Positions 45,001 through 48,000 of a DNA stretch of 64,000 bases are shown piece after piece. The stretch covers positions 756,021 to 820,020 of the forward strand of contig JAVYWL010000001.1 in assembly GCA_038727135.1 (NCBI GenBank), written 5' to 3'. Position numbers: made by a program. Each line of letters begins with the position of its first letter. Position 1 is the stretch's first letter. Source of the DNA: Candidatus Bathyarchaeia archaeon (GTDB taxonomy: Archaea > Thermoproteota > Bathyarchaeia > Bathyarchaeales > Bathycorpusculaceae).

Positions 45001-48000
45001 TCAAGAAACGAATAGTTTCAATGAGCTCCGGGTTTGTAGCCTTAACCTTCTTCAAGCCTCTTGCACCTCAATTTGTTTTGCAAGCTCTTTAAGGTCTTTG
45101 TCCAAAATTTTTACAGCTTCCGTTATGATTCTTTCTGGTGGTAGGACACCTGTTGACTCGATGCTGAATATAAAGGCGTTTTTCTCCCAGTCAACTTCTA
45201 TTGCTGGCGGTTGTTTTGGGCAAACGTCCACGCAGTCTCGGCATAGAGTGCAAGCCAGCAAGTTGCGAACTTCTATTTTTCCTTCACGTTTTGCCAAAAC
45301 TTTTCTTGGGCATATCTCTACACATTTCCCGCAAGCATCACAGCTTTCGCCGTTTACTTTTATTTGTGGCAGATACTTGTATGAACATAGTGAAACCGGC
45401 TGCCACTTGGCATGGTTCTTCCCCTTTCCCAGCCTCGCGTAAGCCTCAAGCCTCAACTTTTGCCCCTTTGCAAGCTTAACTATGGGGATTTTATCGCTGA
45501 CTGGGACTATGTTTGGGTTTTCCGAGACAAGCTCGCCAGAATAAACCGTTATTGTTCCTTCCTTTGCCTCTCTATCTAATGTGAGCGTAACCCTACATAG
45601 GTTGCATCCAAACTCGCTTTTGCACGAGCACTCTTCTGGAAGGTTGTAACCGTCGAGATCTGTTTTTAACGGGATTAACCCAAGCCTATGGGCTATTATT
45701 TCATCATGAAAGACAGAAGAGTTTTCAATGATAACAACATCGTCTATAGCCATACAAGGAACTTCAGCGATAACATTCCTTCTTAGGGCGTTAATAAACG
45801 GAGTGTCAACTCCCCTTATTAGCAAGCGCAAGTTTTTGTCGTCTCTTTCAAGCACCTCTATTTCCACTTAACGAGCCGCTCCATTAAGAGTGTAAACTGA
45901 TATAGTGCCGTTGAATAGAATATTAGTGGGCAATATAAACTTGGCGATTAAACTGTAGATTCTTTTCGCTGCATGTTAAGGTTAAATTTTAAGACCCAAA
46001 CCCAAACCCAAACACCCTCTCAAAGGGGGGAGAGAGGGACAGACGGACAGACAGAGACAGACAGACAAACAAACAGACACAGTCACACACAAACAAACCT
46101 AGGCTTCCATTCACGCCTTTCGTTTCTCAGGTATTTGGCTAAAAGATAGGCTTCCTCGTTAATGAGGGTTTCAATTGTTTGGCTTTTCCCCCATCTAATT
46201 CTTGGAACATTAACCTTAGCTTCAAACAATCGGTTAAGCTTTTCAGCTAATTCCCTAGTCTTTTTCTTACCTAAAACTTGTCTTTTCCCTAAACGGTTAG
46301 AGCTGAACCATTCAGTTTTAACCGTGAAATCCTTAGCCGTTAAGGTTTGGCTAAATCCTATTAGGAAATCATCTATGAGATAGCGATATAATTCCATCAT
46401 GTCGCAAACCAAACTTGGCTTGCCAAACTGTTCGCTATGAACAAACCCAAGATAAGGCTCTAAATGAGCATTCAAAACAGCCATGTAAACCCTAAACTTA
46501 AGCATGGTATAAGCCAAATTGAAAGTATTATTCAAACCGTCATAAGCTTTCCATCCCTTACGTTTATCAGCCTTAAAAGGCAACAGCTTAAAGATTTCAT
46601 GATAATAATGCTCTGAAGCCTTACCCTCAATAGGTAAAAGCCTTCTCCTAGCATCCATAAGGCTATTAGAGTTTAAACCCTCAATCCTAGACTTGTAAAA
46701 GGCTAAGTTAAGCTCTTTTAAGCCATGCTTCTTTAAAACCATGTTTTGGCTCTCAATCTTGCTTAAAACTATTGTTTTAGCTATGGTTATACCTTTGCCA
46801 TTATGTAAGGCTTCATATTGAGCTATGCGAGTTTTAACATGGCTATCATCATCAAGGCTTCTGAGAACAGCCACGGGATTACCATTCCTAGTCTTAATAA
46901 TAACGGGAATATCCCAAAAACCACAAGAAGCCAAAACACTAGTGCTAATGAAATTCCCACTTGAAACAATAATCTCGCCTATCTCATTCTCAAATAATGG
47001 AACACGCTGAACATTCCCATCCCTATCTCTAACAACGAAACAACCCTTTTCCATGCCAAGATAATAGCCATTCCCTTCAACATTAATGGTTAAAAACTTA
47101 GCCTTCATGAGGATAACCAACCTCTTTTAGTTGTTTCTCCAAAACATCTAAGAATTTCTTCATGTAATCTTCATTTTCCAAACATTTTTTTATGATAAGC
47201 CATTCTGGATACCTTAAGAAATGGCTTCTAAACAGCTCAGAAGCGAAGCCATCTTCAAACCTACCGTATTTTTCAAAGAGAATTTGATGCTTCAAAAAAT
47301 TTAATTCACAGGCTAAAGTATTTAGCAGAATATTTGCTATTTGCTCTTCAACGGGTTTATTTAGAAAAATTTCTTCTAATTCCTTCCATTCCTTAAGCTT
47401 TTTAACTGTTTCATCTAGTTTCTCTCCAATTTTTTCAATTCTTTCAATGTTCGGCTTATAGGTCACGTTTTTGGCTGATTTAATCGTCTTCACTACAAGC
47501 TTGAGTTTTATTAAATGGTTAAGATGCATTAATAGAGTAGGCTCTGGCAATTTAACTCTAAACTTACGATGTAAGATTTCTTTTAAGTCCTTGAATCTTA
47601 ACTCTCCTCTGACTAAAAGAATAGCAAATATCTGAGCACATTTTTCATCCAATTTTGGGACAGGTTTCATCGTTGCACTTCCTTTTACTCATAAATAACT
47701 CAATAAATAAACTATTTATATTTTGCGGAACTATAACTTGTAAACGAGGTGATGTAAAATGGATGAAAGTTTCGAATCTACGTTTAAAGAGAAGGTGGGA
47801 GAGCTAACTAGGTATTTGAGTGTTTCTGAGCTTCCAGACGTAATTAAGGCTAGGCTTGTCAGGTGGGAGTTTAAAGAGGATAAGCGTGGAAACGAATGTT
47901 GTTACATCCATCTAGAAACGGAAAACAAGGAGATAATTGTTCAGAAATTCACACGTAGCACTTGGCTTGAGCTTTATGATAGGCTTAAACGTGTAGGCTT

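Follow-up and report, generated by a model that had tools for sequence, protein, structure and literature searches.

The window analysed here is a stretch of 64,000 nt from a Candidatus Bathyarchaeia archaeon (assembly GCA_038727135.1, contig JAVYWL010000001.1, positions 756,021 to 820,020), and it contains a transposon-like element that encodes a Cas1-family integrase and has tandem hexamers at both of its tips, CCCAAA units on the left and TTTGGG units on the right. The (CCCAAA)n/(TTTGGG)n arrays are probably the functional tips of a family of Cas1-encoding transposons of Bathyarchaeia that is devoid of a B-family DNA polymerase (PolB). The hexamers are likely to act as redundant functional 3′ ends, or recognition sites, of the Cas1 integrase, with a number that drifts. 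The element is a discrete insertion flanked by a duplication and carrying a Cas1 gene, and its arrays are conserved among relatives while varying in unit number. The features that define its ends, together with the integrase gene, are as follows.

45980..45993, no strand: left copy of the target-site duplication, GGTTAAATTTTAAG; the 13-bp form is GTTAAATTTTAAG, 14 bp counting the preceding G; direct repeat with 50422/50423-50435
45994..46013, plus strand: left terminal array, A(CCCAAA)3C; Tandem Repeats Finder (TRF) period 6, 3.3 copies, 100 % matches; the G-rich strand is the minus strand, running 5′ to 3′ toward the left terminus
45994..46075, no strand: left arm of the terminal inverted repeat, 82 nt, 98 % complementary
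46038..46079, no strand: subterminal (GACA)n low-complexity tract in the left arm, period 4, 11 copies
46083..47120, minus strand: Cas1-family integrase, 345 aa, without a fused helix-turn-helix (HTH); Pfam PF01867 1.1e-44, TIGR00287 9e-52, Cas1 being the only domain detected
50336..50417, no strand: right arm of the terminal inverted repeat; a (TGTC)n tract lies within it at 50336-50373
50399..50422, plus strand: right terminal array, (TTTGGG)4; TRF period 6, 4.2 copies at 50398-50422, 100 % matches; the G-rich strand is the plus strand, running 5′ to 3′ toward the right terminus
50423..50435, no strand: right copy of the target-site duplication, GTTAAATTTTAAG; direct repeat of the left copy

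The element is a discrete, recent insertion. It spans 45994-50422 of the window (4.43 kb); the duplication that comes with it measures 13 bp, or 14 bp when the final G of the right array is counted as target. Read from 45980, the left junction is ...GGTTAAATTTTAAG followed by A CCCAAA CCCAAA CCCAAA C ACCCTCTC..., and the right junction, read to 50436, is ...GAGAGGGTG followed by TTTGGG x4, GTTAAATTTTAAG and G. The left flank was searched against 30 relatives and both flanks were then compared; in a genome of the same genus (G003) the site is empty, with the target present once (...atgttaaG GTTAAATTTTAAG Gcttagcgg...) and 92–97 % identity across both flanks. The site is likewise empty in genomes G001 and G013, with one mismatch. 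The single-copy target in G003 fixes the boundaries of the insert and makes the leading A of the left array part of it.

The preliminary description had assigned the two ends to a Cas1-bearing element, with the G-rich strand directed 5′ to 3′ toward each terminus and with unequal unit counts, and the empty site, TRF and the inverted repeat bear this out. The counts had been said to differ by about one unit; the inequality stands, but the empty site of G003 sets the exact difference at 5 nt and not at a full unit, the left end having 3 units plus a leading A and the right end 4 units. The left tip resembles a fourth unit of which only the last base is left. Inward of the arrays, 51 nt are identical between both ends and 58/60 positions match. 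Matches to (TTTGGG)3 number three in the window, all at the two ends of the element (expected 0.00, 100 shuffles), and arrays of at least two units occur four times in the whole 1.55-Mb genome, each at an end of the element or its derivatives. Tetranucleotide microsatellites of the GACA, GACT or GATT types lie in the subterminal inverted repeats of many elements (the window, loci L016, L017, L019 and L022, and host contig C5). A strong G-over-C skew in the subterminal 80 nt was considered as a family rule and rejected, being positive in only 26/44 ends and strong on the 3′ strand in 22/44. No significant hairpin was found beside the arrays with ViennaRNA (weak folds, z -1.5 and -1.9), a program that does not model G-quadruplexes.

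Cas1 is the only recombinase-like gene among the open reading frames (ORFs) of the element according to Pfam and TIGR00287, and a Pfam scan of these ORFs found no reverse transcriptase and no DDE, serine or tyrosine recombinase family. Among aligned family members, E165 is conserved in 100/100, H228 in 98/99, D240 in 96/96 and E243 in 96/96, and these residues fit the spacing of the Cas1 active-site tetrad in the available text of PMC4046053 (E. coli E141/H208/D218/D221), the two sets being equated by motif spacing alone. PolB was found by Pfam neither in the 8 ORFs of the window element nor in the 54 ORFs of 7 complete relatives, and complete elements, at 2.7–7.5 kb, leave little room for it. 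Cas2 (PF09827) is not detected in the host genome, which is 94.7 % complete; as a control, the same model gives matches in 6/14 named genomes.

The target is equally distinctive. Duplications of 13–15 bp have an AT-rich, near-palindromic consensus, GTTAAAWTTTAAC, and the flank consensus over 95 ends is G-T-T-A-A-A-W-T-T-T-W-A-n-C-C. In four elements (L043, L070, L082 and L100) the duplication is unambiguously 13 bp and the arrays abut it exactly; others can be read as 13–15 bp because targets tend to begin with G and finish with C. Both copies have the same orientation, and atypical targets (ATGCAGAAACTAT, GTTCAACCTATAT) are duplicated too, which argues for genuine duplication of a preferred near-palindromic site. 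The site is rare in the host genome, which holds only 5 copies of the core TTAAAWTTTAA, 2 of them being the duplication of the window element. At three loci a right array, a single target copy and the left array of a second element follow in direct succession (L053 ~10307-10330, L055 ~7352-7375, L018 ~5090-5115), an element-target-element layout that reuses the duplicated site.

Relatives were compiled from 24 Cas1 loci of species-representative genomes (20 labelled Bathyarchaeia or Bathyarchaeota) and the best 80 of 212 metagenome relatives. One locus (L102) was dropped as the same stretch as L018, leaving 103 loci; ends were not otherwise de-replicated, and L029 and L089 carry the same two ends. 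Perfect runs of at least two TTTGGG units make up 99 ends in 64/103 loci, mostly from Bathyarchaeia, with two units in 63 ends, three in 22, four in 6, five in 5 and six in 3. Homologous elements have thus the same repetitive ends as the window element, not unrelated ones. There are 39 loci without a perfect run, of which 29 are contigs <5 kb, and imperfect T2-4G3-5 repeats beside the same type of AT-rich flank are seen in at least 9 loci (L085, L090, L096, L067, L041, L104, L035, L020 and L040). T3G3 ends are spread over all major clades of a quick maximum-likelihood tree built from 81 Cas1 sequences, with Cas1 identity to the query reaching down to ~50 %.

A duplication can be recognised in 22 complete elements, and the stretch directly inward of the array varies between them. 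L011, L013, L043, L054, L082 and L100 have an inverted repeat that hardly extends past the array, with 0–1 identical leading bases beyond it; in L014, L015, L017, L044, L053 and L070 the inner repeat is perfect over at least 60 nt, and in some elements over >130 nt. The base preceding the G-strand array is G in 76/99 ends. Hexamer-array ends are a trait of the family, the remainder of the inverted repeat being unconserved and sometimes absent. Two loci (L012 and L029) are family members in bins labelled Aenigmatarchaeota and ‘uncultured bacterium’, which could be mis-binning or transfer; L029 shares sequence with the metagenome locus L089.

The host genome (G000) has two further intact Cas1 genes (C3:91340-92520 and C5:3938-6187, loci L006 and L007) that are 54–55 % identical and group on a long branch of their own (100 % support). 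At their ends, a (TTTG/TGAC)n tract precedes a G-rich motif of another kind, ...TTGGGTGGTGGGTG..., and contig C5 stops exactly in this motif. Since these Cas1 proteins lie on their own branch and have their own end motif, the co-variation of divergent Cas1 with the end motif supports a putative protein-DNA match.

The unit number is labile. Perfect counts at the two ends are unequal in 11/22 complete elements: window 3/4, L013 5/6, L015 2/3, L018 3/2, L022 3/5, L037 2/4, L043 3/2, L054 4/6, L082 2/3, L084 3/2 and L100 4/5, where L018 is composite and the left array of L037 is interrupted by one G. Nine elements match at 55 or more of the inner 60 nt, and three of these are unequal (window, L015, L084). 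Unit number also differs within 5/16 clusters of ends that share at least 27/30 identical adjoining bases. In G001, a close relative with nearly the same inner repeat has C(CCCAAA)2 ... (TTTGGG)3G around a duplication of TTTAAAATCTTAT, compared with 3+/4 in the window.

The host genome also holds remnants of the element. A decayed copy (C1:48736-49312) has a left end with (CCCAAA)2 and an inner repeat 92–97 % identical, beyond which 66 residues of the Cas1 C-terminus survive (76 % identical). An internally deleted 1.2-kb derivative (C2:3449-4671; 3468-4658 without flanks) has TTAAAATTTCAAT on both sides and 2 and 1 units, its left end reading ‘ttttat’ and (CCCAAA)2 and its right end GAGAGGGG and one TTTGGG, with only the start of a gene for an AN1 zinc-finger protein left.

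These arrays can be placed in a mechanism modelled on characterised casposases. Each strand of the element ends 3′ in ...TTTGGG-OH. The Cas1 integrase, probably as a tetramer like that of the M. mazei casposase, would join both 3′ ends to a target cut with a stagger of 13–15 bp, and the staggered cut in the near-palindrome GTTAAAWTTTAAC would yield the duplication. The M. mazei enzyme is described in the accessible part of PMC6977970 as a tetramer on a 14-bp target that binds the single-stranded 3′ element end 5′-TATATCCC-3′, prefers a short 3′ overhang and integrates single-stranded ends down to 6 nt. For the A. boonei enzyme, five terminal nucleotides are critical (Beguin et al. 2019, as told in the available text of the review PMC9939771). 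A TTTGGG-3′ unit is close in size to this minimal casposase end and similar in shape, an A/T stretch and then a homotrinucleotide, and by analogy each unit may be read as a complete functional tip or binding site. A tandem array would then offer several equivalent, in-register ends or binding sites. Selection would keep at least 2 units, above which the number would be free to change, with slipped or out-of-register pairing and variable end processing as candidate causes. As a consequence, the two ends of one element would often be unequal while the adjoining repeat stays identical. Cas1 as the reader of the hexamer, like the cause of the number change, is inferred.

Two of the alternatives to this mechanism draw on other genes of the element, which are listed below.

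47098..47670, minus strand: 190-aa ORF overlapping the start of Cas1, weakly winged-helix-like (PF03965 E 0.0053, below cut-off)
47759..48097, plus strand: 112-aa ORF, no family match
48081..48416, plus strand: 111-aa ORF with an N-terminal zinc ribbon (PF09889 8.3e-5, below cut-off)
48406..48876, plus strand: 156-aa basic protein, a conserved core gene directly upstream of the AEP-like gene; homologues in 7/8 complete elements, no Pfam match
48876..49309, plus strand: small archaeo-eukaryotic primase (AEP)-like, primase 1D-like gene, split by a 1-nt frameshift near 49114 into 48876-49163 and 49085-49309
49349..50269, minus strand: 306-aa protein, probable cargo; AN1 zinc finger at the N-terminus (PF01428 1.8e-12) and a hydrophobic segment

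An all-against-all BLASTP comparison of the ORFs of 8 complete elements gave as core groups Cas1 (8/8), a 140–175-aa protein (7/8) and a ~150-aa protein just upstream of it (7/8). The 2.8-kb element L011 has neither the AEP-like gene nor its ~150-aa partner, yet has 3/3 arrays. The winged-HTH-like 190-aa ORF was rejected as a conserved end-binder, phmmer finding no homologue among the ORFs of 7 related elements.

The 140–175-aa protein is the AEP-like one, and 490 cluster representatives match it at E <= 0.001 in a set of 1.84 billion proteins. In the window its gene is broken, and the two halves match residues 1–77 and 76–143 of intact homologues. An extra T behind 49114 in contigs of four hot-spring runs restores the frame, with a depth over total of 6/6 in run X1, 126.9/192.7 in X3, 3.4/3.4 in X7 and 7.6/7.6 in X8; the break is therefore probably an assembly error or a minority variant. 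The only Pfam family recurrently matched by the protein is PF24387 (AEP-like), in 4/6 members (best E 2.6e-4) and in 13/51 (best E 3.5e-7), and the match with a displayed score has 21.2 bits, under the curated cut-off of 27. Residues D16 and D18 are at least 90 % conserved, and the ESM Atlas places the protein in a ‘primase 1D family’ (PF24387) cluster with a score of 0.93. With a six-sequence AlphaFold model (pLDDT 66), Foldseek and VIA-align return generic ferredoxin-like folds or alpha/beta sandwiches only, without an AEP match, and a profile search of the family against PDB sequences gave nothing meaningful. An HUH-endonuclease reading of an ‘HYH’ motif was dropped because the histidines vary across the family whereas the DxD is conserved. 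For the product of 48876-49309, the label ‘AEP-like’ is reasonable but unproven.

Several points weigh against Cas1 as the reader of the hexamers. The contact between Cas1 and the hexamer is proposed from sequence. Many transposases are expected to have a fixed number of binding sites, and frequent inequality could equally mean resynthesis of the ends. The left end of the window element is shorter by 5 nt and not by a whole unit, so that simple whole-unit slippage fails to explain it. The AEP-like protein or its 150-aa partner, each in 7/8 elements, could be the readers instead. In a PDB sequence search, the window Cas1 scores higher with a CRISPR Cas1 (4n06, 69.5 bits) than with the M. mazei casposase (6opm, 47.8 bits), which makes the application of casposase biochemistry to it an extrapolation.

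A telomere-like function of the arrays is unlikely but keeps a real share, since end processing or resynthesis accounts for the partial left unit of the window element and the irregular units of relatives no less well than whole-unit slippage does. An excised linear duplex would be copied by the AEP-like primase-polymerase, with T3G3 repeats allowing priming at any unit and slippage re-extending the end; such re-extension would buffer erosion and yield variable, sometimes partial or irregular, units. The tandem G-rich repeats, with the G strand running 5′ to 3′ to each end, do have the polarity of telomeres, and TTTGGG is a variant of the Paramecium telomere. The lack of PolB (0/54 ORFs of 7 relatives, none in the window element), the small AEP-like gene kept in 7/8 complete elements, the A + 3 versus 4 units of the window ends and the irregular T2-4G3-5 units are all in keeping with it, as are the inner repeats identical over 60 to >130 nt in several elements, as panhandle-type end copying would give. 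However, in all cases observed the arrays are internal to a chromosome or contig, abutting the duplication, and not at the physical end of a linear replicon. Among contigs no free linear or circular form was seen; those that end in an array (L059, L033 and L098) begin inside the element and are thus assembly breaks rather than free forms. Element pieces in runs X3 and X8 have a lower and not a higher depth than their flanks, a weak point taken from contigs only. The AEP assignment is itself weak, with Pfam matches below the curated cut-off and generic ferredoxin-like results from two fold searches, and L011 (2.8 kb) has 3/3 arrays without the gene. For the M. mazei casposon a circular intermediate is proposed in the available text of PMC10359463. 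The full form of the idea, in which T3G3 arrays are telomerase-independent telomeres of an archaeal element, with linear duplex tips rebuilt by AEP-like slippage and Cas1 inserting the resulting ...TTTGGG-3′ end, is a shade more doubtful.

It is also doubtful that the arrays are iteron-like sites for the 150-aa basic protein or the AEP-like protein, marking a replication origin or aiding the pairing of ends. Initiator-binding sites often take the form of short tandem repeats, the two-gene module of the 150-aa and AEP-like proteins is present in 7/8 complete elements, and the window Cas1 is without the fused HTH of family-2 casposases. Yet L011 holds 3/3 arrays without either module gene, Pfam detects no DNA-binding domain in the 150-aa protein, and the arrays stand exactly at the joint with the duplicated target, where an integrase must act.

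Recognition of a structure is improbable. Under this explanation the G-rich 3′ strands would form G-quadruplexes within or between ends, and Cas1 would recognise the structure or the structure would hold the ends together. G-quadruplex capacity, as had been described, is present at both ends of the window element, where the left end has 4 G-tracts and the right end 5, both fitting (G3+N1-7)x4, and binding of single-stranded 3′ ends by casposases is described in the accessible part of PMC6977970; a bimolecular quadruplex made of two two-unit ends is conceivable. The capacity is not general, however: the canonical intramolecular motif is found in only 15/44 ends and at both ends in 7/22 elements, 63/99 ends have two units only, and the arrays are duplex DNA in the chromosome. 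With the motif in 15/44 ends only, an intramolecular quadruplex would not qualify as the conserved function. That the arrays are without function, either neutral microsatellites hitch-hiking at the ends or an unequal count produced by assembly error, is very improbable, for although contigs of other runs break at 50389-50434 (those of X1, X3, X7 and X8 break at the arrays) and the independent 99.5 %-identical contig L071 stops at 50396, Cas1 proteins that share only ~50 % identity have the arrays in common but not the sequence next to them, the arrays abut the duplication throughout, unequal counts recur in 11/22 elements from independent assemblies, and arrays of 12–36 bp should be shorter than a read, each count being tied to its own unique flank.

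Among known systems, casposons are the closest in kind. They are larger, roughly 8–20 kb compared with 2.7–7.5 kb in the present family. Insertions of both groups show site preference, tandem insertions sharing a duplication (L053, L055 and L018), and solo ends and decayed copies in the same genome. The Cas1 gene of the window element, with its catalytic residues, lies outside a CRISPR-cas locus and is accompanied by inverted repeats and a duplication, as in a casposon. Casposon families 1–4 (Krupovic et al. 2014, 2016), so far as the available text of PMC4046053 and PMC4779613 describes them, are alike in that their sole candidate integrase is a Cas1 homologue and in having terminal inverted repeats and a duplication of ~14 bp; both sources treat PolB, which the present family lacks, as making casposons self-synthesizing. 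In its place the core genes are those of the small AEP-like protein and the 150-aa partner. Casposon repeats and duplications are described in the accessible literature as element-specific, whereas one hexamer repeat is common to all members here, and casposons insert at the end of a tRNA or elongation factor 2 (EF-2) gene whereas the present family inserts at an AT-rich near-palindrome in intergenic DNA. The window element works like a casposon, but the name needs a qualifier, and without PolB the family is not filed as a member of families 1–4.

Telomere-type repeats of the G/C-strand kind are also found at the ends of the transposons TBE of Oxytricha and Tel-1 of Tetrahymena, where they sit at the element tips; as regards the tips alone, these ciliate transposons are the nearest analogues. 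Those elements differ in being eukaryotic, germ-line transposons with DDE transposases and short duplications, and their repeats copy the host telomere; the window element has an archaeal host, a 13–14-bp duplication and no DDE family among its ORFs. No telomerase or reverse transcriptase was detected among the ORFs of the window element in a Pfam search limited to the element. In phi29, PRD1 and adenovirus the 3′ strand carries short repeats at its tip, so that synthesis may start internally and then slide or jump back, and the ends can be regenerated. Such protein-primed linear replicons differ from the present family, in which no protein-primed PolB or terminal protein was detected, and whose units are of 6 nt, up to six in number, in an element integrated with target duplication. 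Several copies of a short transposase-binding motif lie at the ends of plant Ac/Ds (subterminal hexamers), Mu and Tn7 (end sites). Their motifs are dispersed, subterminal and fixed, unlike the strictly tandem repeats of variable number at the tips of the present family. ‘Telomere-bearing elements’ (TBE) are described as Tc1/mariner-family transposons in the available text of PMC6767857.

The statement that ends of this kind do not occur in described casposons agrees with the casposon literature, where the available text of PMC4046053, PMC4779613, PMC6563490, PMC9939771, PMC6977970, PMC10359463 and PMC13343696, supplementary repeat tables aside, holds no such description. Likewise, accessible literature on casposons in Bathyarchaeota, Bathyarchaeal Cas1 and TTTGGG transposon termini describes no family-wide tandem hexamer tip, while supplementary repeat tables could hold a similar end. 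A Cas1 transposon family without PolB and with conserved T3G3 tips of variable number thus appears to be new. The adaptation module of CRISPR has been proposed to descend from casposons, whose end-defining features are poorly understood. The existence of a PolB-less Cas1 transposon implies that Cas1-based mobility is not tied to self-synthesis by a B-family polymerase. A conserved, repeated end motif of about the size of the minimal casposase substrate makes end recognition by Cas1 directly testable with oligonucleotides, and the short near-palindromic target, duplicated and reused in tandem, has a layout resembling repeat-insert-repeat arrays. The family is abundant in Bathyarchaeia, and in the available text of a 2025 census (PMC12669027) complete Bathyarchaeia genomes have no CRISPR-cas loci, which suggests that these Cas1 genes work outside immunity. 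If the ends were resynthesised they would be a rare prokaryotic analogue of telomere maintenance, and if the arrays were telomeres, a CRISPR-type integrase would be joined, in a prokaryotic system, with telomeric repeats that the element makes itself and that resemble eukaryotic ones in sequence and polarity.

An Rfam scan of 45000-51500 matched no family. In contigs covering window 45700-50700, flank depth is ~232–237 in run X3 and 49–62 in X8, and that of element-internal pieces 18–56 and 2–8, respectively; the several-fold lower internal depth is a weak hint, taken from contigs only, that the insertion or the element may be confined to part of the X3 and X8 populations. One X3 contig joins 45950 to 50469, with 26 nt on the shorter side, which is insufficient to call an empty site. 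The insertion point lies between a gene for RNA polymerase subunit D with a 4Fe-4S domain (45052-45867) and a proteasome alpha-subunit gene (50546-51274), both of which look intact, and the duplicated target is located ~110 bp upstream of the latter.

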